From Callorhinchus milii (Eukaryota): a DNA stretch of 64,000 nucleotides. The notes below the pieces were generated by a model, which did not search any database, had not been told where the DNA came from, and saw only the letters and a list, made by a program, of their open reading frames with translations. Positions within the stretch are counted from its first letter, which is position 1; every line of letters starts with the position of its first letter. The translations under genes and the position numbers were made by a program. The DNA is taken from contig NW_024704742.1 of NCBI RefSeq assembly GCF_018977255.1, forward strand, positions 86,802,001 to 86,866,000, in the 5' to 3' direction. Shown one piece after another: positions 6,226-38,760 of the stretch.

Positions 6226-6599
6226 CAAGCAGCGGGTGGCTAGGGCTAGAGGGAGCTCAGCCTCCCGAAATCTACCAACAGCTCACGTCTTTAAGGGGAG
6301 TGGACAGAGGAAAGCCCTGAGGAGGACCACGACATCCTCTGAGCAGCTCCAATCCACGGCATCCACGCGGCCTCTCTTGCCCTTCCCAACTCATTGGCTG
6401 TGTCTGCTCACTTCCAGTCCAGGGGGCTACTCGTCGAGGCTTCCTCACCTCTGACTGGCCGATGGACTTGTCGGTCTAGCCAACAGCTCACCCGTCTTGG
6501 AGTGGACAGATCCTTTAACTGAGTTTTATGGGTGGGACTGTTGTTCTCATAACCACATTGCACACTGGAGGAAGAGAATAAAGCAATCCTGGTTACTTA

Positions 6600-6725
<126 letters not shown>

Positions 6726-7665
6726 CTAGACAACATAAATAACATTAGAATCCTAAACTGAAGGAAGATCACAAACGCTAAGAATGTAATACAAGGCAAT
6801 AAAGATTTATTTATTAATTCTAATAATCACTAGAGAGAAAGAGAGAACAAACAAGCACTTCAGAACATCTTCACGTAAGTGTGCCAAATGTAACTGCTTT
6901 TCTTTGTAGATAAGCATTGAAATTATTTGGGGGAAGACCTCCCCCCCCCCCGCCTCCAATTGTCATGAGAATAATTCCTAGTTAGTCTGGAGTTATTTTT
7001 TGATTGGTGATGGCTGAAAATGTTACAATGTACCTCAGGTACTTTCCATTATTATTTCAAACATGTTCAACGACCACAATAAAGCTGGGTATTGCGAACT
7101 GGTTAGATACACCACCTGAGAATATAACCCCTTCAAAGAGAATAAACTCTTCAGCAGTTAGTAAAACACATAGTACTTAAGCACAACTGCACCAAGCTCC
7201 TTCACACATCATTTCATGGGGGAGGAAAGAGAAACACAGAGAAACAGACACACGCATACACACAAATACACCCGAGAAAGAGAGAGAAGGGATACACACA
7301 CACAAACAAACAGATAACTACAGAGAGAGAAAAGCAAATCACTGTGCAGCCTCAGGACTTCCTCTCCCCCTCCCATTTGATACTAATTTCCCTCATCCTC
7401 TCCAGGCGTCTTGAAGCTTCTAACGGAGATTCACAATTCAGGACAAAATTAAGGTCAGCTTTTTGCTATGAGGCAATGTCCTCCAAGACATGTGTTGAGT
7501 CTGCCTAAACTCATTTCACAGCCAACAGGCGGCGAAGACACTTTCATCCAATCAGCCTGGATCTGGGAGCAATATCCGATTCTTTTTTATGACGATAAAG
7601 CAAATGCGGACAATTTTTAGTTTTAAATATAAATCCTGGATAAAGAAATGGGAAGGTTATCTTAC

Positions 7666-7719
7666 TTTATGTAATGTCACCGTATACTGCTCCCACACAA
7701 GCTCCTCCATGGCTGTGGT
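7666..7719 (-). CDS. TJP2: TJP2 common second exon, containing an in-frame Met (7710-7708) that could start a short isoform
   Basis: Acceptor tttccacag|ACC and donor AAA|gtaaga; 54 nt, phase 0 to 0. TTAMEELVWEQYTVTLHK versus human ZO-2 APGMEELIWEQYTVTLQK. The internal ATG has a strong Kozak context (gccATGG). Confidence 0.96.
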
Positions 7720-8159
7720 CTGTGGAAATAAAACAGAGCATTACAGTATTAGAACTATGCAATACTGTATCTTACTTTGAGATCCTGGTGCTGAAGGCAA
7801 TCACAAGGACAGTTTTTAACTGAGAATTAATAAAACACTGGAGTAGTGATAAGAACATAAGAATTTTCTAGGCGAAAGAAGACTAAGGTCCATCTAGTAC
7901 TCCATCCTGGCAGTCGACCAGAAATGCACAGAATATACCACTGATTTGCAAAGTAGCAGGATTAGCCCACTATTTTGACTCAATATTGCCCTTTTAATAC
8001 AGTCCAGCATCTGGTTTGCCTTACTCATTGCATCTGATCTCGTGCTTCAGGTGCTAACCATGTCCCATAGTTTTTTTTATTTAGTAATCAGCACCTTGGG
8101 GTGTCCTCCTGACTTGAAAGGCATTATTATATAAATGTAAATTTGTATTGTGTTGTGAT

Positions 8160-8478
8160 AATCATCATCATATTTACCTTTGACATAGCATTACTAACAA
8201 TTGAAATGTCTCAAAACAACACAGGAAATTGATGTCTGGTGAAGTGTCTGCATTTTTAGACAAATTGCAGCAGCCAATTTGCACACAGCAATGCTCCACA
8301 AACAGCCAGGAAGTGACTGACTTTTATCTGGGGATTGTTGGGACTCTGGGATAAATTCTCTTCTCTTTTTTAATAGTGCCTCTGGATCTTTAAGGACCAG
8401 CTGAACAGGCAGACTAGATCTCAGTTTGATGTCTCATCTGTCTGACAATGCAGTGCTCCCCCAACACTGCACTGGAAC
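8160..8478 (-). mobile_element. Degenerate Deu-type SINE, tail-to-tail with an L2 3' end at about 8088-8152 (+)
   Basis: gatgtctcatctg...gacaatgcagtgctccc...cactgcactgg is the reverse complement of a Deu-domain-like core; gcagccaatttgcacacagcaa is shared with other SINE copies here. Confidence 0.6.
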
Positions 8479-8649
8479 AGTGTGTCAAACTAGCATCCAT
8501 GGGTTAGGGAGTAGGAAAATCAGCCCAGATCACTGTCGTCTGAATGTGCATAGACCATGTGAGGACAGGATCGATGCCTGTGTGATGCTCTATAAAAGGT
8601 CAAATTAACTGCAAACTCTGAACATGTAGGCTCACACCTAACAACAATT

Positions 8650-9000
8650 ACTAAGGAAGAGGCTGGATGACAAACAGCACCTGTGGAACCAGGTGAAGGG
8701 AAAGGGAGTGAAGACATATTCAAGTGTTGGTTTTGAAAGCAGAGAAGTAGGGTACAAGGCAGGGAGATTTAGGGAGAGAGTTTCAGTTGGCAGGGGAAAA
8801 GGTGCTGTAAGCTTGCCCACCAAAGGTCTAGAGAGGAAGATGAAGCAGGTCAGAGTTGTCAGAGCCAGGGGGCAGGACAGTAGATTAAGGAGATAGGGAT
8901 GGGGTAAGGCTGTGGAGGCATTTAAAGGGAAGGACAAGGATCTTAGTCGATCTTCTGGGGAATAGGCTGAGGTTGAGAGTGATCAGTTTGTGTGGGCTTG
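8650..9000 (-). mobile_element. Old L2 fragment
   Basis: Degenerate similarity to L2 RT C-terminus/3' UTR (ttttgaaagcagagaag...gggagagagtttcag...ggcatttaaagggaaggacaaggatctt). Confidence 0.55.
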
Positions 9001-10126
9001 CATTGACAGTCATGAAGGAGATGAATCGCAGGAAGACCAAAGAGGAGGGAGAAAGCATAGTAATAACATTTTTTTGTAACCAGATTTACAAAATGTTCAC
9101 AATTTCAGTCCACAAAAAAATCTCCAATGCATGCCATGTAAATCATTCTAATATTGAGAAAGAATATTTGATTTAGATCAACTGATTCAATGACAACCTT
9201 CAGTAATACTGTAGTGATGAAGTCTCATCTCATGCATTAATCCTTCTTGCAAGTAGATAAGGTTTTCTAAAGGTTACATTAATATCAAAAGACAATCCCT
9301 GCATAATGTAAGATTGAACAAGTTTTTCCTTGTCAGATGGAGGTCAGTGCTGTCTTCGAGTCAAGCTCACTCAGGTGGAAAACACCGAATGTTCAGTCAG
9401 TTTCTTTAATGCTCAGAAAACTACAACGAATGCTAGTTTGAGTTCTTCCAAAGGTTACCACGGTATTCAAAGGCACATGCACACCAGGTTTTAACCCTAC
9501 TCCTTTCTCCCCTTCACTACTTCATTACCACCATCACCACTCTCCTGAAATCTAGAGAGTGACTTTAAAGAACATCTTAAAATTTTATTTTGAGAAGATT
9601 TTTTAAAGAAGAAATTGGCTGCTGCATTTTGCCCACAAATACTTCCATAGTCAATCCACTATAAATCCTGCAAAGTGCTTGGGACACGTCTTAACAACCT
9701 GATCATGCGCAATATCAAATGCAAGGTTTCTTACTATTAAGAGTTTTATTGCTCAGCTGGGCAGATAGGTTCAAGAAGGAATTGAATAATTATTTGATGG
9801 GAATGGAGTAGGGAGGTAGATAAGGAGACAGTGTTTGACAATAAGTTGACAAAAAAACACTACACTTCGCAGTAAATCCTGTAAGGGACTTTGGGATATC
9901 CACCCCACAAGAAAAGCACTAGACCAAATGTAAGGATTATTATTAATTATTGCTATTATTGTTGATAAGATGCTCAACTCTTGTTGACAAAAAGTTAGAA
10001 CTGAGTTCTCTCCCCGCCCCCACCCTCTCCACTTAAAGATCAAATAAATGTATTTTGGGTCATCCTTTCAATCTAACAACGGAGCATATGGAACACTCCA
10101 TGTTTCCTCATCCTGTGACCCCAGAT

Positions 10127-10483
10127 TAATAATAATCCTTGCATTTGATATAGTGCCTTATCATATCGTTGAGACATCTCAAAGTGCTTCACAAAATATA
10201 CTGTAAAGTGAAATGTATATTTTGCGGAATGGACGAAATACGGCAGGTAATTGCACACAGCAGTGTCCCACAAACAGTGGTGGATTGAGTGTCCAAATAT
10301 TTTAGGGGTTATTACCCCAGAAAGCGATCCGCCAATTGACTAACAACTAGGTTCCTACTCACTGCTAAGTAAACAGAGGCATCTAGAGTAAGGAAACTTG
10401 ACAAACATTTCACCCTGCTTGGAAATCAAATCCGGGTTCTCACTTGCGAGGCAAGTGCTCTAACCAATACACTACAGGACTCC
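10127..10483 (-). mobile_element. Full-length tRNA-derived SINE, long subtype
   Basis: The minus strand begins GGAGTCCTGTAG with tRNA-like A/B boxes, has the central gcctctgtttacttagcagtgagtaggaacc block, and ends in an L2-like tail with (ATT)n. Confidence 0.9.
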
Positions 10484-10849
10484 ACATTTGCACTACAGGC
10501 TGGCTCTTACAGCATGTTTAGATGACAGTAGCTCTGCCACCAGTGATAACAATCTTTGGAAGCACAGGTCAGGAATGCAAAGAGACTGCCATAATCAGAG
10601 GTTGGCGAGTGCTGAAGGCAGTAAACTAAAAGAAGTGTCTCAAGTGGTATGTCGCCGTTTTTGGGGAGGGAGACAGGACAACGACGTCTCAACTCTGTCC
10701 ACCAATGCAGCTTTATTTGTGGTCTGTACAGACCTACCTCAAAAATTCACCTCACAGAAAATGAAGTTGTGATTCACAACGTGTAAACGCACTGCACATG
10801 GATGAGTTCGCAACACAAGGCATTTCCAAATTGCTGTCGCACGCAAGCT

Positions 10850-11330
10850 TCCAAACACCTTGCCTTGCTCCGTGGAACTCTCTCCCTAAATATCTCTGCC
10901 TAGCATCCCCCACTCCATACGCCCACAACTGTTGGGTGGGCTTTCACCACTCGGCTTCTGCTCTCTGAAACTCTAATCCTGGATCCTTCCAACTTGCTCC
11001 CTCCTTCCCTTCTTTCAAAGTACGTCTCATTGACTCAATGTCTGTGCTTTTGGTTATCAGTTCCCTCCTCAGCTCTGGTGCCCAGCAAGAATCCTCAAAT
11101 GCTTTGGGACATCCTCCCCACGCAAAAGGTGCTATACAAGTCTATATGGTATTGTATCGTATCCACCCTCTCAGCTTTACCAACTTTTGTAAAACCTACC
11201 TAATTGACTGCACCTTCAGTCACTTCCCACATAACTCCGCACCCCACCTTACACCCTCCTCGTCTCTCTCTGGTCAATCCTGCAAAATCTTTTCTTCTGT
11301 GAAAAGTGTTATACGAGTGCATGTTGTTGG
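10850..11330 (+). mobile_element. Cluster of degenerate L2 3' fragments
   Basis: tggaactctctccct and gctttgggacatcctccccacgcaaaaggtgctatacaa-type motifs. Confidence 0.55.
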
Positions 11331-13269
11331 GCACTCTGCCTCGCAGTGTAATTAGGATGAATCCAGATCAATAGTAGCCTCAGGTTGCTGCTTCTATTTT
11401 AAGCAATTCAATACAAGAGCTTTGAGAGAAGAAATGCACTATAAAAATGTAGAACACTGTGTTCTGTAATTACCTGGTGGAAAACATAATTTGTGTGCAT
11501 GTCGGAAAGGGTGGTGGGGAGGGGGAAAGATGTCAAGTATGGTATAGTGAAGGAGCCCACCCAGTCCACAGTAGTGCTATAATGCAGTATTTCCTCCACC
11601 TCAAACAGAGGCTACACTCCTGTATAAATTTAGAGAAAATATTTTATTCGAAGCTTTCATTTGCTGTGAGTGGTCATCAAATTGTTTGGTACTGGTAGCT
11701 ATTGGAATGGGGTTGTGGAGTGTCGGGGGGGGGGGGGGATGAGAGAAAAGAGTCTACATTTTTAAAAAAATGTCCCATCATCCCTAGTCTTCCTTATTGT
11801 CAAAGGGTTTGGCTCAGTTGGAAGCATACAATCCTTTATATCAAACGATGTGGGAAAGAAAAGGAAAGGATATCAGGAAATGAAAATGTTTGATTTCCAG
11901 TTGAATCATATCACATGGTTTGAGTACACTTGCTGCTCAATGGGGAAAATGTTTGCCAAAGATAAAATAACTGCAGCGCAAACTAATAGTTGAATGGGCT
12001 CCCTGATACATAGCTATACAGTTATAACAAAGCACAGTTAAAAAAAAAAATCCTCCCCTGCTGTGTGGGGCTTTGTTTAATTCTGCAACTTAACACACAT
12101 GAATGAAACGAGAGAGCAAAGCACAATCGCTTTCTTTCCTTAGACTTTTGTTTAACCAAAAAATCATTAAATGTGATTTTCTCAGCATTAAATAATTTTA
12201 AATAAGCAACAGAATAACAAAGCATATACTTTGTCATTCCCGAGATAAGAAATTTGTTGTGGGGGGAAAAAAAAGTTCAGAAGACAATTTCACCTGCATG
12301 AGTTAATTGGCTAACGCTACACTTTACATTCTGATAGTTTCGATTTGAAGCAAAGGAACAAATAAAACCATCACAGCAATGAGAGTTTATGCCAGGTAAT
12401 GTTCTGCTATCTTAAACTTGACAAATACAGGATCATCCGACCTGAGCAGCTGGCTGACAGGAGACTGAAAGTTTGAATTAAAAACGAGATAACGACACAA
12501 ACCAAAAACACAGCCAACAGAACACTCATTTCAAAGCAAGAAACTCACAATTCCACTGAAAATCCTGAGTGAATTCACTGCATGGGCCCATTTTCTTTGC
12601 AATGCTAGGACGGACTTCATTCTGAAATGCAGTGCTGCAGTATGGACAGGATTCGCCCTACAGTAAAGACCCCAGCAGCAATTTCATCCATTTCCAGAAT
12701 TCATCAAGCTAGATTATGTAACCTTAATACAGTGCTGGCCTACATGCACAACAAATCCAGCAGCGATTTTACTGGGAGGCAAAACCATTCCGTTCAGGAC
12801 ACGATCACTCATACGTCCTTGGACACTGTACCAAGTTCGGCACATTATTCCATTGCTTACACTAAGTAAAAAGTATAAACTTCTGTGATAGTGCTATAAG
12901 GTAACAGTGCTCTAAGGTAAGGTAATTACATCCACTCTTACAAAACAACAAAATCAGACAATATTTGTTTGACTGATTATTCAACTTAATTCCACTTACA
13001 TTTTTTATCCACTGTAAAGTAATTATGAAATAGAAATCTCACAGTATTACACTAAATGGATTAACAACTGAACTGCAGGAATGATTACATTTTTAGCTAT
13101 GATTTCACATTAACCTTTGCCCAATCGGTCGAGGCAGGTATGAAGTAAATTAAAACCGCTTTTTAAATTTCAGAAATAATTTCCTATAACCATGTTTTGA
13201 ACACAGATCCGATTCAAAGCATTTTTTTCATTTCCACAAAGAGTTTAGCTGCTGAGTGAATGGCTGAGC

Positions 13270-13500
13270 TGTGCAAACTGGAATGCTCCAGGTTGTATTG
13301 CCCACTCATTGCTGAGTTAGCCAATCCTAACTGAGGTAAGAGCAAAGGGATTACAATCTGTCTCAGCAGCCCTGGTTAGAGAAGCAAAGAGGGAAAGAAA
13401 ATCCCTTTTGGAGACATGTCTGTCATCTGGCAAGGACAGGACACACTCTGTTGTGATGCCCTCTCCTCCCACTCCCCTAACCACTGTCATGGAATTGTAT
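13270..13500 (+). mobile_element. Old SINE-like dispersed repeat, related copies at about 710-900 and 8490-8600
   Basis: Shared degenerate blocks (gagttagc...ttacaa.tg.c.tc...gggaaagaaaatc...gaggacagg...tgtgatgcc). Family not identified. Confidence 0.35.
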
Positions 13501-15863
13501 CTCGATGGAAAGTAAAAAGACATCAAACACCCTTAAGATTCAAGGATATAAGAAACGTGTTTTAATACACAATGATACACATCAGTTTCCTAATTATTAA
13601 CTGTTGAAATCTGATCAAAGAAACCATAGGACTGAGAACGCCATCACGACAAATACAAAAGACTTATGCGCACACACATGCACAGCCATCACAAAATCCC
13701 ATTTTTGCGTGAAGAACATTAACCTCCAAAAGTGCCTTATAGGTCCAAACAAGCCTGTGTTCATTCAAACGTTCTGGAAATGGCTTCATAATTTATATCC
13801 ACAGCGGTTATGAAAAGTTGTGAAATAGGTCAAAGTATTTCAGAAACCACTGTTGAAAACAGGAGTACATCACTTTAGTAACCTGAGGTCCTGTCCATAA
13901 GCCATACTGATCTAAGAATATATCAAATGATAAGCACCAGGAAGTGAAGGATGCAAGCATGTATTCATCCACATCAATACAAAACTGGGTTATAGGTCAC
14001 AGGTGCTCAGTCACACCTGCCAATTCTACAATAGGTACAAATCATCAATCGATTTGATGCACAAGTCACCGTAGCTTGGTTTGCAAGCCATGAAGAGAGG
14101 GGACATTGTTATATTTATTTTTGTGGGGAAGTGTCATGGGGGGTGAAAGTAAATGATTTGCAATGTGAAAGTGCTCCTCTTCGGAAGGTTTTTTTCAGTT
14201 AAAACAAATAATAATTTTGTTTATCGTTGCTAAAGCAGTTTTGTGGAGAAATACAGTGGAAACCATAAAAGATTTTTCTCTCTCAAAGCTACAAAGTACC
14301 TGAAAACAAGCTTAACTTGGGTACAGGCTGTGCAGATGAGCATTCCTTACAAAACCTCTGTGGGCAGAAGCGAACCCAAATTTAATAAAAAAAGACCACT
14401 AGCCCGGAAAGATCTATCTAGATGTGCCAAAAGTGAACACAGTGGAGTCTTCTTGTCATTGCATTCAATTATCAGATGAAGTAAGTCACTTACACACTGT
14501 TCTGCGCATCCTTCTAACCTAAGCAATACCGAAGCCATTAATGCTTCTCCCAAGGCACGCTTTTGATTGAACAAGAATTGATTGTTGAAAATTTAATTAC
14601 ATGTTGCATCTTAAATAATCAACTCCCAAATGTCTCAAAACCCTTATTGTCCCTCCTATTTATAACCATTTCACATCTGTGGATTCCTGTTTTTCTCGCT
14701 TTCTAATCCTGTGCTGCAGTGATTCCATTTGCTATAATCCAGCTTCCACAGTCATTGTGACGAAGCCATTTGTTGGCTGGCTCGAGGCGGACAGGAGCTG
14801 GGGGGGTGGAAGGAAAGCAACAACCTCAGGCCCAAGAGACAGAAAGGTGAACACTTCCAAACTTCTACCATCACATCCCAAAAGTTGACAAGCAAGTTTA
14901 TAGAGGGTGAATCAAAAGTCCTTACTCATAGGGCTATATGAAATGTTCAAACTGCATGCCAGGTAGACATTTACACATATCCACTCGGTGACAAAAAAAA
15001 TCACGAATGTAATGAAAGACATCTCCTGTAATAGCTATATGCTCTTAGTGAATGCAATCTTAAAAAAAACATAATAATTAAAAACTCTGAGTAAGGACGT
15101 ATGATTCACCCTGTATAGTGAGCAATACTTGGTGACTGGGCCTATTGGTTCCATTCCACCCACCTTCCATCCAGCCCTACTTCCTCATGAGTGGCAAATG
15201 CGTCTCTATTTGTAGTTGATATTAGGAGTATACTGTGTGAGGTGTCATAGGTTTTCTGATGTTCAGTTGCACTCCAGCACCAGATTAAACATCCAGGGTT
15301 ACGTGTAGAACACTGATCTCTGCTCACCTTCACTCTTCCAGAGATCCCCTCTGCACATTCACAGGGTCCAATCACCAACACAACACTGTCCTTTCAGTGT
15401 TTATTCAAAACTTCCATCACTCTTTCTAAGCTTTTACATTCCATAAGCCTTTGTTCTACTGCTGACTTCTGCTCATGAAAGCAGTATCAAATATACTTTA
15501 ATTTATAGATACACAACTGTACCACAGCTAAATCACACCCACGTGCCATTTCTTTAATGTTCCTTCAGCAGTGACCAACAACTGAAAACCAACCGCCAGC
15601 TTTCTCCATCCTCATCTAAAACAAGGTCACAAGAGAGGTTTGCGTGAAAGGCCCATTTGCCCCCTTCCTTCCAGAATACCCACTCAACTGTAGCTTCCTA
15701 CATCGCAGCGGATGCAGTGCTAAACTATGAAGACAAGGAAGTTCCAGGGGTGAAACATGATCTGTGTAGAACAGTCAATTTCACCTGGGGCAATCCTATA
15801 CTGTAGGAGCAACACAATAAATCTCCTTTTTATTCTTGAATGGGAGAGGAGAAAGGAAAGAAT

Positions 15864-15866
<3 letters not shown>

Positions 15867-15910
<44 letters not shown>
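15867..15910. repeat. (GA)n microsatellite followed by a degenerate SINE head on the minus strand (15915-15952)
   Basis: Directly visible. Confidence 0.9.
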
Positions 15911-15911
<1 letters not shown>

Positions 15912-17809
15912 CATTTTGCCCTACTGGGAATCAAACCCAGGTTTCTCACTTCAACTCCTTTATGATGTTAGAAAGATGCGAATTGTTGTTCGCATTCCAC
16001 TGACGTTCTATCCACTTGACCGTCAAATATCAAGGCCTGGATAAACCTCAATTTCTTAAAATGGCCAAGCCAGCACTGGAGGGAACTGAGGGATCCATCA
16101 TGTTTAGTTCTTCGAGAAGTCCTTTTGATGTGAAAAGCACTATATAAATGTAAATTGTATTGTATCCTCCTTGGCTCTGGCCAACATCTCCTCACTTCTG
16201 GGTCTTCATTTTCACCACATTGTCTGTCTCCAACCCAATCTCACATTAAACACTGTTAAATCATCATTTACGCCTTAATTACCTTACAACTTGACTTCTC
16301 AAGCGCACTTCGTTACGCCATCTATAAGCTCCAGTCAATACAAAACTCTGCCACCCTCACACTCAACCACACAAAACACTGCATATCCATCAGCCACAGC
16401 CCTGCACAGATCCTCGTCTTCTAAGTGCTCACCATCATCTATATATCCCTTCGTACACCAGACCTGCCCATCTCCTTAATATTCTCCTACACTACACTCT
16501 TGCTCAGCTAATGCGGGCTTGCTGAGCACTTATATAGCGCCCTCCACGAAGGGTAGCGTCTCAGTGGTGGAGCCCAACTCCGATGCTGGGGGTGGGGTGG
16601 GGGGGAGGAGGTGCTCCGAGGCATTATTCTATGTGAAGGACTATGTAACTGTAGGTTTCTAGTGTTCCTATCCTTACCCTCGGTTAATAAGCACATGGGT
16701 GGATGTCATATGAGGACAGCAAAATCGCAATGAAGTGTCTACCAACACTCACTTGACTCGGCTGACGTAAAGAAAAGCTACTTGACTGGGTGCTGGAGAA
16801 CAGCCCAGTGTGTAGCAGTGCACGGAAAAGAGGGGGGTGGGAGATTGTGCAACAGTAATGTACATAGTTACTGGTGTTCAAATGTATACAGCAATTTGGC
16901 TTCTCTAGTTTGCTTAAAACATTCATACTGAAGCTCCTGCAGGCGCCAGTGGCTTTTACAAAATGTTATTAAATACAATATCTCTCTTCGTACAATATAA
17001 ATCACTGAAAAGCGTCTGTAAACAAAAACCAGTAACTCCATTTTCTGGCTGAACCTTTCTTACTGTAACCCCAATCAGGAATTGAAAATAAATGGGACAA
17101 AATATAAAAACAAATGTTATAATCTGGCATATTCTGGTGGGTGTGGTTACACTTGCTTCTTATGGCGGTCTTGTTTAGGTTTTTCATGTGTCCCATCGGG
17201 GAGTGGGGAGCAGTCTTGCAACAGAAATTGCTACAGGTGAAAGCATTAAGAAGTACGAGTCACATTCCAGACAGCATGAATGGGCACTGTACATATAGTA
17301 ACGTACTTACAGGGGAATATTATTGGGAACATTGTGACAATCAACATTTATAAGTGCCCGGACAACTTGCCAAAACTCTCTATAGGCCTCTGAAGTTCAG
17401 TGAGGGTGTGCATTGTTGACCAAGTTTCGAAAACAAGCATGCTGTCAAATTATTTCTTCACAAGTAAAAATCCCTGTTGATGGGCAGATGAAATCCCATT
17501 AGCAAAATTATCTATGCGGCTTTGATTTTAGCAATGAGATAAACTTTAAATTTTTCTTACAAAAAAAGTCACGTGATATAATAGCTACAGAGAGGGTTTA
17601 GCAGACATTCACTTGGAGGATACGAGATTATAGTTATATGAAGAGAATTAAAAAGTTGGGGGCAGCCAATGGTACAGTAGGTAGGTGTTTCAAACCACTT
17701 TACAGTGTAGTGACTGCGTATTTGTGTGTGACTAAAATTTGGTACTGTTGCTTCCCTGGGCAGATGTGTGGGGCACGTACAAGGTATGAAGCTGGGGGAA
17801 AACATTTGC

Positions 17810-17982
17810 AACTCATGGTTCTGGTATTTTTAAAATCACTACCAAACCAGATACTGTGGACCTGCTACCAATCAGATTGCCCGAGGTGAAATATAGGTCA
17901 GTGAAGTGACTTTGTTGTTTTAAATTATAAAATTGATTGAAATTGTAACTCATGGTTCTGGTATTTTTAAAATCACTACCAA
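17810..17982. repeat. 36-bp perfect direct repeat (17810-17845 and 17947-17982)
   Basis: aactcatggttctggtatttttaaaatcactaccaa occurs twice, 137 bp apart. Confidence 0.95.
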
Positions 17983-18469
17983 GTTCACATTGCATCATTG
18001 TGATCCCATTAATTAGGTAATTAACAAGAACACAGTGAAATGAGGAACAGTAACCTGCCATGAATGGGAGAGCTCAAACCAGCAGTAACGTAGACTCTTA
18101 AGGAAGCTTGATTGAGACACGAGAACACAACAAAAATCTTCGCCTCGCCAAGCGTATAAAATATTTTCATTAGGTATTTATACAATTTCATGACAAAATC
18201 CTTGGTCGAAGCAAGATAATAACAATAATAATAAGCTTTGCAATTGATAATTGTTCACTTCTATGGAGGAGCACACCATGATAAGCTGATTGATACCACA
18301 CTGATACCGCATTAGCCACACAACCTACCTCAAAACAAAACCATTACATGATAAAAAAAATTCTAATAAAATTCTTTAAAAAACTCAGTAGACTGCATTT
18401 TGTACATTTTTAAAAAAAACAAATCTTAAAATTTGGACAACCACCATCACCACAACAATTTTACAACAG

Positions 18470-19135
18470 CGAGAAGCATTTATATAGAACGCTTCACATA
18501 GGATAATGTCTTGAGCACTTTACAATGACAGGGTCGGACACTGAGTAAGGGAGAAGGTGACAATAAGCACATTTGAAGTGGTAGGTTTTAAAGCAGAATT
18601 TGAAGACAGAGAAGAGACAAGGTGGAGGGGTAAAGGAGAAAATTCCAGGGAGGTTAGGAGTGTAGTAACTGAAGGCTTGGTCACTGATGGTTGTGAGGAG
18701 GGGGCTGAAGATGGAGTCAAAATATAGGTTTTTGAGATGGGTTTTAAGAACCAAAAGGAACCCAGATTGTTGACACAGGGTGGGTAAAAGCCACAAAGGC
18801 ATTTAAAAAGATAAGGAAGAAGATGTTGAAGTTGATCCACTGGAGGATAAGGAGCCAGTGGAGCTGTGCGAAAATGGGAGTGATGGGCTTGTGGAACTTA
18901 GTATGGGAGAGGATGGGCATTTAGATACTCTGGAGCTTGTGAAGAGTGGAACTGGAGATGTTGAGTCTGGAAGTTACAATATATATAGCGCTCTTTACGC
19001 AGGGCACCATCTCAGAGACAGAGGCGTGGATGAGGGATGAGGTAGTAGGGATCAAGCAGAGGTGGAAGAAAGCAGATTTGGTTGGAGCCCAGATGAAGTA
19101 TTTAGAGAGTTGAGGTTTGAATAAATGGGATATGA
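18470..19135 (-). mobile_element. Degenerate L2 fragment with a nested short L2 tail (about 18970-19020)
   Basis: ORF 18921-19139 (-) contains remnants like SAFFHLCLI and TSRLNISSSTLHKLQ of L2 RT; the 3' UTR resembles other copies. Confidence 0.65.
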
Positions 19136-19220
19136 ACAATAAGTCTAATTAATTTATCAATAATCTGCAGTTAAAAAGAAATACTTAGTCAGTTCAGACT
19201 GAGGAGACCTGAATTCTTAT

Positions 19221-19787
19221 CATAGAATTATACAACACAGAAGGAGGCTATTCGGCCCATTGTGTCTGTGTTGGCTCTTTCAAAAGAGCTATCCAATTCA
19301 ATCCCACTCCATCACGCTCTCCCCATAGCCCTGCAAACTTGTCCTCCTCAAATAATTATCTACTTCTCTCTTAAAAACTGTTATCGAATCAGGTTCCACC
19401 ATCCTTTCAGGAAATGCATTCCAGATCCGAACAACTCGATGTGTAAAACAATTTCTCACCTGTTTCTTTTAACAACCATTTTAAATTGGTGTCCTCGGTT
19501 TACCAACCCATCCTCCAGTGGAAATAGTTTGTCCTTGTTCACCCTATTGAATCCCCTCATAATTTTGAAAACTTCTATTAAATCTCCTCTTAACCTTCTT
19601 TGCTCCAAGGAGAATAATCCACATTCTCTAGCCTCTCCTGATAGCTGAAGTCCCTCATTCCTGGTATCATCCTGGTAAATCTCCTTTGCACCCTTTCCAA
19701 TGCCTTGACATCTTTTCTAAAGTGTGGTGCCCAGAACTGAACACAGTACTCTAGTAGAGGCCTAACCAGTGTTTTATAACAGCTCAT
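19221..19787 (-). mobile_element. CR1 LINE 3' fragment
   Basis: ORF 19590-19787 (YKTLVRPLLEYCVQFWAPHFRKDVKALERVQRRFTRMIPGMRDFSYQERL) is the canonical CR1 RT C-terminus; the 3' end starts catagaat. Confidence 0.93.
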
Positions 19788-19998
19788 CTAATAATCCCTC
19801 CAAAAAAACAAAACAATAATAAATTGGTCATTTTCAATCCACGACTGTTTGTGGGACATTGCTGTGCGCAATTGGCTGCCGCGTTCGCCCACAAATATAC
19901 AGTCAATTCACTTTACAGTATATTCTGTGAAGCGCTTTGGGACGTCTTCAAGACGTGAAAAGCACTATATCAAATGCAAGGATTATTATTATTGTTAT
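19788..19998 (+). mobile_element. 5'-truncated tRNA-SINE (3' half)
   Basis: Near-identical to 25480-25693; ends gcactatatcaaatgcaagg(att)n. Confidence 0.9.
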
Positions 19999-21877
19999 AG
20001 CTATGCATTATCCACAGTACCAATGTTCAAAAAGCCCAATACCAATTGAGTATTCCTCTTACACAAGGGCATTTGTATACTGCAGAACGATTTGATGGGC
20101 TTTGAAAGCTGAGAGGGAGGGAAGCAAGGTGGAGGGATTTGGGAAGAGAGCTCCAGCGGAAGTGAGCAAAGTGGCTGAAGGTTGGCCCGATGATGATAGG
20201 GCAGAATAGTAAAGGGAGTGTTGGCAGAGCAGGGCATAAGGCTGCAGAAGATCACTGAATTAAGCCATTTAAAGGTAAAAATGAGGATATTTAAGTTGAT
20301 TTGCTGGAGGATAGGTGCCAGTGGAGCTGGGTGAGGACGGATAGAGTCCTCGATTAGAAGACCAGGCTCGCTAAAAATAGTACAATATTGAGGCTCAAAG
20401 AACTTAACAAAAAAATTACATTTTTAAAGTGCCTTTCACATCAGGAGGACATCCTAAGGCACTGAGCAGTCAGGGATTAGGATCAACTCACACATACAAA
20501 TCAGTTTTCAAAGACTGTTTATTTCAAGGTAGTTCAAACAATGTACAAATTGTCATAATAAGGTTAGACTATCCACAACGTATCTAAAGAGTCACCAAAA
20601 TTGCCAACAATTGTGTAAACTCACACTCATTTTGAAAAACGGCAAGCCATGCTATAAACAATGAAAAATAAGTTTAATAAAAACCTGCGTTCCATTAAAT
20701 CTCATCTCTGTGTACTAATTAAATAATTCATCCAGCACATGCAGTCCAGAGTGATACCAGCAATGACAGTTGAGGAAAGCAACTACAATTTGCCCTTCTT
20801 GCATCACATGCAATTAACTGGCGGACAGCTGCAGACAACTCAGTCCACCCACCTGTAAAATACCAAGGCAGCTATGGCAGGGAGGCATGATGCAACATCC
20901 ACTTAAAAAAACCACAACTTAAACGTCTTGGGAGGTCGTTGCTGCCATGAAAATACTACATTTCTCAATTCTTTCAATTTGCTGGTAACATTCTTCAGTT
21001 CACTCCATATTTTAGACATGATGCAAGTCTGTTAGCAGACTGGGTGCATGTTCACAAAAAGCGATAAGGTGAGTATTTTTGTTTAAAAAATAACAGGTTA
21101 GTGTGTCAATAGACTGTCAATATTCAACCACCAGTCTCCAACAGTACAATTCGAGCACAGAACAAATCTTGGAATGGACACAACGTGAATGATACACAGT
21201 TTTGAAAGAAACCATACCAAATTGGAAACAAATCTTTGGGATTATAGAAAAGAAAGCACCAGAGTACAATGAATATAGTAATGACTACTTGTCTTCAGCA
21301 AAAACCCTTCAGGTCTATATGCTTTTCCAACTTCTAAATAGAACTGCAAATCTGTTTCCCTTCTTGCTTTGTTTTCATTTATCAGTGTCATATTCATTTA
21401 TCATTCATTCCTCCTTAACTTGCCAACAAAAAGTCACTGCTCTTGAGAATATTTACCTGTGAACCACTTTGCAACAAAAATGCAACTTCTTTAATTCTAT
21501 TTGTTTATCACCATTGTATATATTACTTTGTATTTACTGGCTGGCACATTTGCCAGTAAAATACTGTGAACCGTTTTGAGACATTTCATTGTTCAACACT
21601 CACCCATAAAAAAGTCACTATACCTCACAGTAAATCCTATGAAGATCTTTGAAACATCCTCCAGAAGTGAAAGGAAATAATATTAAATGCAAGGATAATT
21701 AATCATCATTATTGCTACTATATGTACTAAATCAGATCATTGTTCATTAACAACCAGTAGGAGTAATCTTTCACTATTTATCCTTTTAACAAGCTTTCAT
21801 AATTTTGAAGGCCCTTTTCAACCCAATTTTTTCAAGCCTATCTTGATAACTATGATCTCTTCTTAGTCCTGTAATAA

Positions 21878-22200
21878 GGAGTCTTGTAGCTCAGTAGTTA
21901 GAGCACTCGCTTTGCAAGTGAGAGACTTGGGTTTGATTCCCGGCAGGGCGAAACCTTGGGCAAGTTTCCTTACTCCACACGCCTGATAATAATCCCTCAA
22001 GAAAATAATAATAAACTGGTCACTTCAATCCACGACTGTTTGTGGGACGCTGCTGTGCGCAATTGGCTTCCACCTTTTGCCCAGAAAAATACAACCAATT
22101 AATTTTACAATATATTCTGTGAAGCGCTCTGAAACGTCTAGAAATGAAAAGCGCTATATCAAATGCAAGGATTATCATTATATTATTTATTATTATTAAT
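21878..22200 (+). mobile_element. Full-length tRNA-Ala-derived SINE, short subtype
   Basis: GGAGTCTTGTAGCTCAGTAGTTAGAGCACTCGCTTTGCAAGTGAGAG (A box, TGC anticodon loop), B-box-like GGTTTGATTCCC, L2-like tail and (ATT)n. Confidence 0.92.
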
Positions 22201-23024
22201 AAACCTATACTCACTTCCCTAAAATCAATTATTCACTCATGGCCATCCCTCTCAGTATCGACCAATCCCTTTGTGAACAATCAATCTGTCTGCTGCCCAG
22301 TGCAGCCTTCCTCTTTATTTGTATCTATTCGTCACAGAGGTATGAGGTTCCCTCTTTACTTTGTATTAATAACTATTATAATATAACAGTGTTTCAAAGT
22401 ATCGAAATAATCTTCACCTAAATGGCCAGAGTGAAGGATTCACCAACGTGGTGAGGTTTAGTGAATTCGGGCGCCACCCGACACCGCAGTGCACTCCCAA
22501 TTGCTGTAGGCAATGGGGTGAAGTTTTTAAGCCCAAACCTGAACAGACTCACACAGGGTACAGACTATTATTTAGTATGAGGAGGCAATGCCTTCAGTTA
22601 GATTGTGGAACAGCCTAAAACAGTTTGAAAGGTGCGGAGTGCGCTCACATACCACTCCCTTGACTTCAGGGAAGTGATATTTATGAACTCAGAACCATTG
22701 CAGCTCAGATTCCAGCCAAGAAATGCACATGGTGGGTTTCAAACCTCTCAAAAGTCACTAAAGCTACTGACAAGTGATATCGGACCACACCAGACCCCCC
22801 CCCACACACACACACACACACACTGCCTCTCACAATTACACAAGTCGCAGACAATTAAAACACACTCACGGGTGTGCAAGTTAATAGGAGCGGACAGGCA
22901 ATGGCGATGGCAAACGTCTACCGTCTGTGCAAACTTGCAGGTGCTCTGAAAAGTCCCTCCCACAGAAAGAAAAAAACACACCACACAAGTCATATCAGAT
23001 CGTGAACATAAAGCAAGTACTTGC

Positions 23025-23048
23025 CTGATCCTGGAATCTGACAGCCAT
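23025..23048 (-). CDS. TJP2: Candidate alternative first coding exon of TJP2 (MAVRFQDQ) with GC-type donor
   Basis: gcaagATG GCT GTC AGA TTC CAG GAT CAG|gcaagt. Strong Kozak (A at -3, G at +4), otherwise perfect CAG|GCAAGT donor, phase 0, and GC-rich promoter-like sequence upstream (23100-23520). Confidence 0.6.
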
Positions 23049-23099
23049 CTTGCAGATCAGGGGCCAGGTAACAAGATCAGCTCCTCAACCCGACACCTA

Positions 23100-23520
23100 G
23101 ACCCCCCCCACCCACACACACACACACACAACTCACTCAGTCACTCCCTCCCTCCCTCTCTCTCTCTCTGAGTCACTCCCTCAGCACAGCACAGCACAGC
23201 GCGAACGCAGCAGATTCCACCCCAGTCAGGAGGGTCACAGCGAGGGAGGGGGGGAGTGAGGGTGAGGGGTGGGGTCGGGGGGAGACTTTGTATCTTTGTA
23301 CCGTCTCTCAGGTGCCTGTACTACCCCGTACTCACTGGTCGGGAATTCCCACTGCTCCCATTATCCTTTGCAAAGTCTGCCAGCTCAGCCTCCCTCCCCT
23401 CCCCTTCCCTCCCCCGGGACAGAGCCTATCAGCTCCCTGGTTACACCTGGTCTGGGCTGGGCTGGCCTGGTCTGGGCTGGGGCAGGGCACAGGGTGCAGA
23501 GACCAGCCCAGGAGCTCTCT
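23100..23520 (-). promoter_or_regulatory. Candidate alternative promoter/5' UTR for the MAVRFQDQ exon
   Basis: GC-rich with (CA)n/(CT)n tracts, GGGGTGGGG boxes, an AP-1 motif TGAGTCA near 23169 and repeated CTGGG pentamers. Confidence 0.35.
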
Positions 23521-23579
23521 GCGTGACGAGCTTAGGCGCTATATCAAATGCAAGAATTGGTTTTATTGTTAAGGTGTAG

Positions 23580-23675
23580 TATTGTTAAGCTCCCTGGAGT
23601 GCAACCGAGGGAGTTCAGCTGCTGATCCGTCAAAAGAGCGAGAGTGCAGTATGCACTCCAGGGAGTTTAACAATA
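23580..23675. repeat. 96-bp palindromic MITE-like element with 24-bp inverted arms
   Basis: tattgttaagctccctggagtgca (23580-23603) and tgcactccagggagtttaacaata (23652-23675) are complementary at 23 of 24 positions. Confidence 0.85.
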
Positions 23676-23910
23676 ATCCTCGCATTTGATACAGCGGCTT
23701 ATCAAGTCATCGAGACGTCTCAAAGCACTTCATAGGAGTTAGTGTAAAAGTGGATTGACTGTGTGTTTTGTGGGTGAAACGCAGCGGCCTGCAATGTCTG
23801 CAATAAACAGCCAAGGAGTGAGTAATCAATTTGGTTTTTTTTGGTGGGTGGGGCGCGGTGGGGATTGTTGGCCAGGACACCGGGAGAAGCTCAACTCCAC
23901 AGAGCATGTG
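23672..23910 (-). mobile_element. Deu-type SINE 3' part
   Basis: aataatcctcgcatttgatacagcg tail and gttggccaggacaccgggagaa block, shared with 38795-39060 and 45550-45820. Confidence 0.75.
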
Positions 23911-25029
23911 TTTTGTACAACCCAGCCAAAAAACACATGCTAGCTTGAAGAGGCAACACCCAAGCTTGAGATCTACATTTGACCACCCCCGATTTCAGTT
24001 AATTGTGGAAATAAAACGCTAGAACCACATAACGTTTCAATGAGTTAGATATGAAAAAGGTGAAGGCCATTTGGTACACCCAGCCCTCTCCGTCAGACCA
24101 CATACTACAACTTAATAATAAAACTAATTCTTGCATTTGATATAGCGCCTAATCACGTCATTGAGAAGTCTCAAAGCACTTCATGTGATATACTGTAAAG
24201 TGGGGTGATTGTGGAGTTTACGGGCAAAACTTGTATTTATATAGCACCCTTCACACAGGGTAGTTTCACAGAGCACTGAACAATTTATCCCATATCCCAG
24301 CTCCCCACTATGTCCCTCATTATTTTTATTCCCCAAATATCGATCAGTCTCCATCTTAAATTGCTCATCTGTGGATTTCGCAAGAAGATTGTTTTCCGCT
24401 TTATCTTGGTCCTTGCGTATCGGGTTGGCTCAGTTAGCACTCTCACCTCTGAGGCAGAAAGTTGTGGTTTCAAGCTATGTTGAATTGGACCCAGAAGGGT
24501 ACATTATAGACTTCCTCCCTCAGGAGGGAGCATTATACATTGGTGCTGAGTGGATGAAGTAAGGGCAACACTCCTGTATATAGTGTGATTGATTAACAAA
24601 GAGATTGACTGTCTAGAGGGAGTCAACAGCTTTTAGGATTTGGGGGATTTTCAAAACCAAGTCAATACAATATTACGACTTAGGGGATCATTGGGCAGGT
24701 TAGACAGATTTATTTTAGTGTGAGGGCCATGGTTTGATTGACTGCAAAGTGTACTTCTACTATCATCAGACATCTCCATTTTTCCTGTCTACTCATAAGC
24801 ACAAGTGAAGGATGAAAACCAATTTCTCCTTTATTTCTTTAGGTGTACTTTGGGAAATTTGAGGTAACACAAGTGATGGATATTGCCACATTGCTTTTCG
24901 TTTGCTGTGGTTCCTCTTTTCTGTTTTATTTCAGGCCTTTGATGAAAAGGTCACAATTTTGTATTAGTTTGTATAGAACTGAAAGCACATTTGACAGAAC
25001 GTAACAATCTTATAATTTAAAATGTCTCT

Positions 25030-37194: not shown

Positions 37195-37215
37195 CTTTTC
37201 TCTCCTCACAGGCAT
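37195..37215 (-). CDS. TJP2: Probable TJP2 first coding exon (ZO-2A-type N-terminus MPVRREK)
   Basis: acaacATG CCT GTG AGG AGA GAA AAG|gtgatt; phase 0, compatible with the 7719 acceptor. Resembles the human ZO-2A start MPVRGDR and lies downstream of a GC-rich region. The donor is suboptimal. Confidence 0.65.
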
Positions 37216-37509: not shown

Positions 37510-38346
37510 ACACACTTCTCTATCCTCCCCCCTCCTCTCTATCCTCCCCCCTCCTTCTATCCTCCCTCACACCTCTCTATCCTCCCCCCTCCTCTCTCTC
37601 CCCTCCTCTCTCTCCCCTCTCTCCCCCCTCCTCTCCCCCCCTCCTCTCCCCCTCCTCCTCTCTCCCCCCCTCCTCTCTCTCCCCCTCCTCTCTCCCCCCC
37701 CTCCTCTCTCCCCCCTCCTCTCTCTCTCCCCTCTCTCTCCCCCTCCTCTCTCTCCCCCCTCCTCTCTCTCTCCCCTCCTCTCTCTCCCCCCTCCTCCCCT
37801 CTCTCCCTCCCTCCCTCTCTCTCCCCTCCTCTCTCCCCCCCTCTCCCCTCTCTCCCTCTCCTCTCTCCCCCCCTCTCTCCCCTCTCTCCCCCCTCCTCTC
37901 TCCCCCCCCTCCTCTCCTCCCCCCTCCTCTCTCCCCCTCTCTCCCCTCTCTCTCCCCCTCCTCTCTCTCCCCCTCCTCTCTCTCCCCCTCCTCTCTCTCC
38001 CCCTCCTCTCTCTCCCCCTCCTCTCCTCCCTCCTCTCTCCCTCCTCTCTCCCCCCTCCTCTCTCCCCTCTCTCTCCCCTCTCCCCTCCTCTCCCCTCCTC
38101 TCTCTCCCCTCCTCTCTCCCCTCCTCTCTCTCCCCTCCTCTCTCTCTCTCTCTCCCCTCCTCTCTCTCCCCTCTCTTTCCCCCTCCTCTCTCCCCCTCTC
38201 TCCCCTCCTCTCTCCCCCCCTCTCTCCCCTCTCTCCCCCCTCCTCTCTCTCCCCCTCCGTCTCTCCCCTCTCTCCCCCTCCTCTCTCCCCCCCTCTCTCC
38301 CCTCTCTCTCCCCCCTCCTCTCTCTCCCCCCTCCTCTCTCTCCCCT
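37510..38346. repeat. ~840-bp homopyrimidine/homopurine (C/T) low-complexity tract
   Basis: Almost exclusively C and T on the plus strand, built from degenerate ccccctcctctctct units. Confidence 0.97.
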
Positions 38347-38349
38347 GAT

Positions 38350-38760
38350 CTGCAGCCACTCAGCCCAGAGCTGAGCTACAATGAGAACACAGCCCCGGAG
38401 CCCCAACCACTGTGGCCCCGGGGGGGGTGGGGGGGGAGGCCCCGCCTCGCTGCTCCCTCAGCCCTATCACGGCCCCCCCCCCCCCTCCCCCCCCCGACCC
38501 ATTGCAGCACAACTTCACCGCAACAACCAACACAAATGCAGCTGTGCCCTGACACCGGGCTCCGGGGGGGGGGGGGAGGCTCGTCACCCTCCCCTCAGGC
38601 GGCAGTGGCACTGCCCGCTGTGGAGTGGTGCCCCCCCCCCCGGGGGCTGGTGTTGAGGAGCTCAGAGCAGCGGCAGCAGCTCACAGGGCGAGGGGGGCAC
38701 AGGCACCCACTTGGCAAAGCCTCAAAGGGATGCTGTCAGGGCTTTGAAGGGGGCAATGGC
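38350..38760. promoter_or_regulatory. GC/CpG-rich segment, candidate TJP2 upstream promoter region
   Basis: Locally high GC with CpGs, G/C runs and a GC-box-like gccccgcc, about 1.2-1.5 kb upstream of the MPVRREK exon. Confidence 0.4.

Follow-up and report, generated by a model that had tools for sequence, protein, structure and literature searches.

Alternative first exons and GC-AG introns are both common kinds of genomic feature. The consensus 5′ splice site reads CAG/GTAAGT (the slash marks the splice point), and a C at position +2 is tolerated by U1 snRNA when the remaining consensus positions match. The same consensus is stated in PMC2490688, according to which a near-perfect context makes up for the C at +2. 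Among human protein-coding genes, GC-AG introns represent 0.8% of all introns and 1.2% of first introns (PMC7242645), and GC-donor counts are repeated in PMC3488318. The GC-AG first intron of ABI3BP, found from human to fugu and zebrafish (PMC7242645), resembles the tjp2 intron described here in being U2-type, located in the first position and kept for a long time. However, the cases in that study are orthologues across species, whereas the donor of Callorhinchus milii is common to two paralogues, a term ('paralog') that is absent from the main text of PMC7242645. As for the gene itself, human TJP2 is transcribed from promoters PA and PC, yielding isoforms ZO-2A and ZO-2C (PMC6747478), so that ZO-2 is likewise made in forms that have and forms that lack a short N-terminal extension. 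The extension of human ZO-2A consists of 23 residues and by sequence fits the MPVR-type leader, encoded in C. milii at position 37215, rather than the MAVRFQDQ exon that is our subject; the available text of PMC6747478 does not mention a MAVRF isoform of human TJP2.

The locus was analysed within a 64-kb stretch of C. milii (elephant shark) DNA, hereafter the window, in which the gene lies on the minus strand. Exon 3 (6601..6725), recognized from an RNA joint and from protein and structure comparison, encodes the first half of PDZ1 and marks the gene as TJP2: it is 100% identical to C. milii ZO-2a, the PDZ1 domain is nearer to the Tjp2 structure 2csj (E = 4.6e-20) than to ZO-1 (3e-15), and the window protein falls within the ZO-2 clade of a quick IQ-TREE tree. 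Searching the genome with exon 3 produced matches at three ZO loci only, and hence no retrocopy was seen. About 79 kb past the low end of the window (L012:206-919, minus strand), there is an apparently intronless 238-codon open frame, possibly a retrocopy, which presumably resembles a beta-crystallin.

The coding part of the alternative first exon (23025..23048, minus strand) comprises eight codons, MAVRFQDQ, and ends in phase 0, as supported by the sequence, an RNA joint and the N-terminus of XP_007890842.1. Its start codon at 23048 is flanked by A at −3 and G at +4. The exon ends with a GC 5′ splice site, CAG/GCAAGTAC (23017..23027), followed by an intron of 15,305 nt (7720..23024). Common exon 2 (7666..7719; TTAMEELVWEQYTVTLHK), known from the sequence, the RNA joint and RefSeq, has its first base at 7719, just after a pyrimidine-rich acceptor, and contains the start codon of the short isoform at 7710, so that the in-frame product reads MAVRFQDQ-TTAMEELVWEQ. 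The sequence CAGGCAAGT occurs once on the minus strand of the window. Compared with CAG/GTAAGT, the donor matches at 8 of 9 positions, +2 being the sole mismatch, and at 9 of 11 when +7 and +8 are added; the GT donors of tjp2 score lower, with 6 to 8 of 11 in the four that were scored (7 for the MPVRREK exon, 6 for exon 2 and 8 for exon 3). With GC..AG ends in spliced RNA and a near-consensus donor, this is a U2-type GC-AG intron; judging from the donor type and the pyrimidine-rich acceptor, it would be excised by the major spliceosome.

The splice is supported by RNA-type runs. Twelve sequencing runs were listed, none of them recorded as RNA, their types only guessed and their tissues hidden, and the spliced joints themselves constitute the evidence. 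Six of the twelve were aligned (X1, X2, X3, X5, X6 and X10); X10 (organism B) yielded no alignment, which speaks neither for nor against the joint. Four presumed RNA runs from two studies (X1, X2, X3 and X5) were aligned to positions 6500-23500 of the window, and all four, across both studies, contain the 23025/7719 joint, with 15,305 nt skipped and plus-strand ends CT..GC. The joint can slide by 3 nt, and canonical-type ends are obtained in this register alone. The joint between exons 2 and 3 is likewise present in all four runs, and the MAVRFQDQ exon, exon 2 and exon 3 are found together on single contigs of 4,456 nt (X3) and 256 nt (X5). By contrast, the DNA-like run X6 is colinear through intron 2 and lacks the exon 2-3 joint, a comparison that concerns intron 2 and not the GC-AG intron. 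In X1, the contig carrying the GC-AG joint has a depth of 27.5 versus 127.5 for the exon 2-3 joint, whereas the two differ little or not at all in X2, X3 and X5; given that depth is a single value per contig, these figures do not rank the isoforms. Separately, X1 has roughly 10-fold coverage over 10680-22460 within the intron and departs from the reference at many single letters, and so contains DNA or pre-mRNA from another individual or allele.

These results bear out the initial annotation, which had proposed, from the sequence alone, an eight-codon phase-0 exon with a strong Kozak ATG joining TTAMEELVWEQ in frame, as well as a GC donor otherwise perfectly matching the consensus, and had named the junction from 23025 to 7719 as the check to be made. 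Its remark that functional GC donors are often missed by GT-only annotation does not apply here, because the leader is already carried by RefSeq ZO-2a isoform X1, XP_007890842.1 (P0121), which starts with MAVRFQDQTTA-MEEL. This predicted model is the same isoform, with identical sequence, and no remark on the GC donor or on a link to TJP3 was seen in it. Isoforms X2 and X3 start with MPVRREK and MEEL, respectively, and the MAVRFQDQ leader is present in one of the ten C. milii ZO-2 entries listed.

Two other first exons deserve mention. According to the RefSeq annotation, the upstream MPVRREK exon of isoform X2 (coding part 37195..37215, minus strand; GT donor) joins the same exon 2, in keeping with the MAVRFQDQ exon being an alternative first exon. 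The two exons have equal phase and are alike at 9 of 12 nt over the first four codons, and may be tandem copies of one ancestral leader exon; in bony vertebrates, the MPVR-type exon is longer, about 20 codons. Directly above the MPVRREK exon lies an 830-bp purine-rich simple repeat (37517-38346), and above this tract a stretch of 63% GC (38400-38700) might be a promoter region. A third candidate first exon, read from the sequence (12549..12620, minus strand), has 24 codons (MKSVLALQRKW...), a GT donor and phase 0. It appears to be an intact MKS/MKT-type exon homologous to ZO-2 leaders of sharks, teleosts and amniotes; it is absent from the ten C. milii models listed and from the RNA joints among the alignments shown for 6500-23500.

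A counterpart of the MAVRFQDQ exon was found in tjp3 of the same species. Reading the DNA above exon 2 of tjp3 revealed, 3,941 nt upstream, an eight-codon phase-0 leader exon, MSVRFLDQ (L042:4590-4613, contig C21, minus strand), ending in CAG/GCAAGTAT. The donors of both leader exons read CAG/GCAAGTA, with positions −3 to +7 identical, an identity read in one species, C. milii. Ungapped, the exons share 30 of 43 nt and 6 of 8 residues. Across codons 2-7, five of the six third positions differ, versus 2 of the 12 first and second positions, statistics that cover six codons only; for exon 2, the two genes differ at 5 of the 10 third positions that can be compared. Past the donor, the introns are unrelated: intron positions +1 to +7 are identical, and +8 to +60 match at 7 of 53. 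A DNA alignment of four leader regions was informative in the tjp2/tjp3 coding part alone. Position, length, phase and donor thus agree and the codons are related, and on these grounds the two leader exons can be regarded as homologous. The third-position changes and the unrelated intron flank fit an old common descent in which the peptide and the donor were under selection, rather than recent copying, albeit on few sites.

The tjp3 junction rests on protein models, and the tjp2 junction on RNA-type runs. Two UniRef C. milii ZO-3 proteins begin with MSVRFLDQ-STV-MEE, a start for which the GC donor is needed; two other listed models are without the leader. The RefSeq-type ZO-3 model listed (P0403) begins at MEE. 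UniRef labels the ZO-3 protein of contig C21 'ZO-2' or 'ZO-2-like'. In the IQ-TREE tree, a quick search on 23 chosen proteins with midpoint rooting and with ZO-1 and an outgroup excluded, the contig C21 gene is placed among ZO-3 (SH-aLRT 100). The ZO-2 and ZO-3 clades each include cartilaginous and bony vertebrates, indicating that the TJP2/TJP3 duplication is older than the split of these groups, which took place more than 400 million years ago. In the genome, exact back-translation of MAVRFQ/MAVSFQ matched 13 sites (3 for the control), including the tjp2 exon, with no site near tjp1 or tjp3, the tjp3 exon differing at two residues. A joint exon and donor pattern matched only tjp2 and tjp3 in 991.5 Mb, but this pattern had been built from both exons and is not independent.

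The leader is not confined to C. milii. Among the entries listed, 13 of 23 cartilaginous-fish species, one of them C. milii, have ZO-2 models that start with MAVRFQ[DEGS]Q. For two clusters, 15 of 25 and 15 of 19 members were listed, and because these lists are incomplete, the ten leaderless species are not counted as absences. Among 166 named bony-vertebrate TJP2 entries listed (13 unnamed ones were left out of the count), a single one, from turkey, has a similar start, MAVRLQEM-VS, which could be an eight-codon exon read through a GT donor. Caecilian ZO-2 models begin with MAGRALTQ, eight residues with a final Q; both the caecilian and the turkey starts are possibly diverged versions of the exon. 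Metagenome scans for vertebrate host DNA gave 0 matches in one case and 20 matches with no nearby ZO exon in the other.

In ZO-3, an MxVRF leader is present in 46 of 118 entries listed, from rays to apes, a count from which two tjp2a entries were left out and which is biased toward leader-bearing entries by a query that itself contained the leader. The V-R-F core and the position before the MEE exon are the same as in tjp2. The leader is six residues long in 34 of these entries (tetrapods, including apes), eight in 11 and nine in one. The ZO-3 leaders of cartilaginous and most ray-finned fish entries have eight codons, as does the tjp2 exon, and stingray ZO-3 starts with the identical 8-mer MAVRFQDQ. 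By contrast, the tetrapod leader is the six-residue MAVRFQ, a boundary deduced from other isoforms at the protein level. The initial annotation had mentioned a human TJP3 isoform beginning with MAVRFQ, which we presume to exist: the lone human entry listed is a fragment from MEEL, and MAVRFQ-VAD opens the ZO-3 entries of chimpanzee, bonobo, gorilla and siamang. Its inference of an origin before the TJP2/TJP3 duplication gains strength from the tjp3 exon with the identical GC donor, and the conservation in other chondrichthyans that it called for is seen in the protein models; a confinement of the exon to the TJP2 of this lineage is not supported, given its occurrence across cartilaginous fishes.

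Overall, we are confident that the feature is a spliced alternative first exon of tjp2 with a GC 5′ splice site, which places an 11-residue leader before the usual start and was likely inherited, together with its donor, from the common ancestor of TJP2 and TJP3. Transcription would start at a promoter of its own 100-250 nt upstream, and exon 2 would be served by at least three promoters in all. The other donor positions match the consensus, and the C at +2 would thus be tolerated by U1 snRNA. Ribosomes would then initiate at the strong upstream ATG, and the resulting leader would form a disordered tail with its V-R-F core under purifying selection. In an AlphaFold2 model computed from a 50-row alignment, residues 1-12 have pLDDT below 50 and the first strand of PDZ1 starts at residue 13, placing the leader outside the predicted fold.

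As to what the leader does, we lean modestly toward a short binding or localization motif beside PDZ1, which seems likelier than a mere passenger of the promoter. ZO-3 expression is epithelial, and a tissue-specific, possibly epithelial, role might be guessed from it. Two motifs were compared with the leader by their definitions and rejected: for the IAP-binding motif, residue 2 varies (A, S or E) and proline is absent at position 3, and for the PP1-binding RVxF motif, no basic residue precedes the V. The passenger explanation holds that what preserved the ancestral exon was its promoter, 5′ UTR and start-codon context alone, with the leader and the C at +2 carried along, the GC having been fixed neutrally in a strong context and never reverted. 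It agrees with the ancestry proposed above, so that the disagreement concerns function only, and we consider it a serious contender, if one somewhat short of an even chance. The predicted disorder of the leader fits it, as do the numerous ZO-2 and ZO-3 models that begin directly at MEE, and the G at +4, which is set by A or E at residue 2, can reflect a Kozak effect. Furthermore, neutral fixation in a strong context is the more plausible origin of GC donors according to PMC2490688. What this explanation accommodates less readily is that V-R-F is retained in both paralogues despite the changed third positions and recurs in 46 of the 118 ZO-3 entries listed, from rays to apes; reversion, moreover, does occur, 40 GC-to-GT changes having been inferred in mammals (PMC2490688).

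Rather less probable is that the donor has no common history in the two genes, either because GC arose independently in chimaera tjp2 and tjp3 or because the exon was copied between the paralogues after the duplication. Independent origin is helped by the mammalian record, in which 298 GT-to-GC changes stand against 40 reversions (PMC2490688), by a strong context that would permit the change at both donors, and by the donors having been read in one species only. However, a GC donor occurs in 1.2% of the first introns of protein-coding genes (PMC7242645), so that a second independent GC at the homologous site is unlikely. Copying, for its part, is at odds with the differing third positions, the unrelated intron flank and the presence of the leader throughout bony-vertebrate ZO-3. 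We therefore regard this alternative as improbable and retain inheritance from the TJP2/TJP3 ancestor.

An origin deeper than that ancestor is hinted at by short leaders in other ZO proteins. In the tjp1 locus, a first exon encodes MSARSAGGK and is followed by a GT donor, while MAGRAALSK is the start of hagfish ZO-1-like models; together with the caecilian proteins, these hint at an older origin. What they share is M-[AS]-x-R, shortness and, where read, phase 0, which makes the common origin of ZO leaders a lead rather than a result. An MxVRF exon was not found in 120 kb around tjp1, nor did MxVRF appear within residues 1-300 of the new entries among 150 cluster representatives. On the minus strand of tjp1, MKYQKYL- and MSARSAGGK-type first exons lie at L053:452 and L052:1738 (contig C22), respectively. 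In bony-vertebrate TJP2, leaders of the form MRYKKY/MKFKKF match the MKYQ type, which adds another instance of leader exons common to ZO paralogues; in the output examined, neither the window nor the 120 kb upstream of it showed a match to an MRYKKY/MKFKKF-type leader. In its most far-reaching form, the scenario would be that C at +2 has been selected in TJP2 and TJP3 since before the shark/bony split as a weak first-intron donor tuning the output of one promoter, that MAVRF is an unrecognized short linear motif of ZO-2 and ZO-3 derived from a leader exon, M-[AS]-x-R, that every vertebrate ZO gene had in common (MAGRAALSK in hagfish, MSARSAGGK in elephant shark ZO-1, MAGRALTQ in caecilian ZO-2), and that the MPVR exon is a tandem copy. 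We regard this combination as speculative and, taken whole, unlikely.

The 5′ end of the exon is defined less sharply than its donor. The spliced contigs of X2, X3 and X5 align up to 23097, with 31-34 letters beyond left unplaced, and an X1 contig, at a depth equal to that of the joint contig, appears to extend to about 23295, judging from a variant at 23251. These contig ends tentatively put the start site at roughly 23130-23300, and the 5′ UTR, drawn from contigs and sequence, would occupy 23049..23295 (minus strand). A single ATG lies within 400 nt upstream, at −313 in another frame, and the reading frame above the start codon is shut by in-frame stops at −39 and −51. Of the GC-rich, promoter-like region that the initial annotation had placed upstream, the base composition stands (GC 0.54 over 23001-24000), but the region is not a CpG island, with a CpG observed/expected ratio of 0.37 against a threshold of >0.6. 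A TGASTCA heptamer of AP-1 type at 23169..23175, in what would be the promoter or UTR, was rejected as a signal, the window holding 7 matches versus 12.7 expected by chance. That the exon is instead an internal one of about 23096-23025, behind an unseen non-coding first exon and with its acceptor AG at 23098-23097, is very improbable: the aligned pieces do end on the G of an AG with letters left over, but a (TG)n/G-run begins at that point and the alignment probably skips simple repeats, the 30 nt ahead of the AG are rich in G and lack a pyrimidine tract, and the X1 contig appears to continue well past it.

The isoform itself is known from RefSeq. The literature searched, which covers few subscription journals, has no occurrence of 'MAVRFQ', and publications on TJP2 promoters and isoforms, on ZO-3 evolution and N-termini, and on GC donors in paralogues, seen mostly at the level of listings, yielded nothing on the exon. 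A GC donor common to TJP2 and TJP3, shown here in one species, was not found in print, nor was a study of the leader. The leader, conserved up to ape ZO-3, would be missing from ZO constructs that begin at MEE. A non-canonical donor in two paralogues older than the cartilaginous/bony split would, in turn, offer a clean test of selection versus neutral persistence of GC donors.
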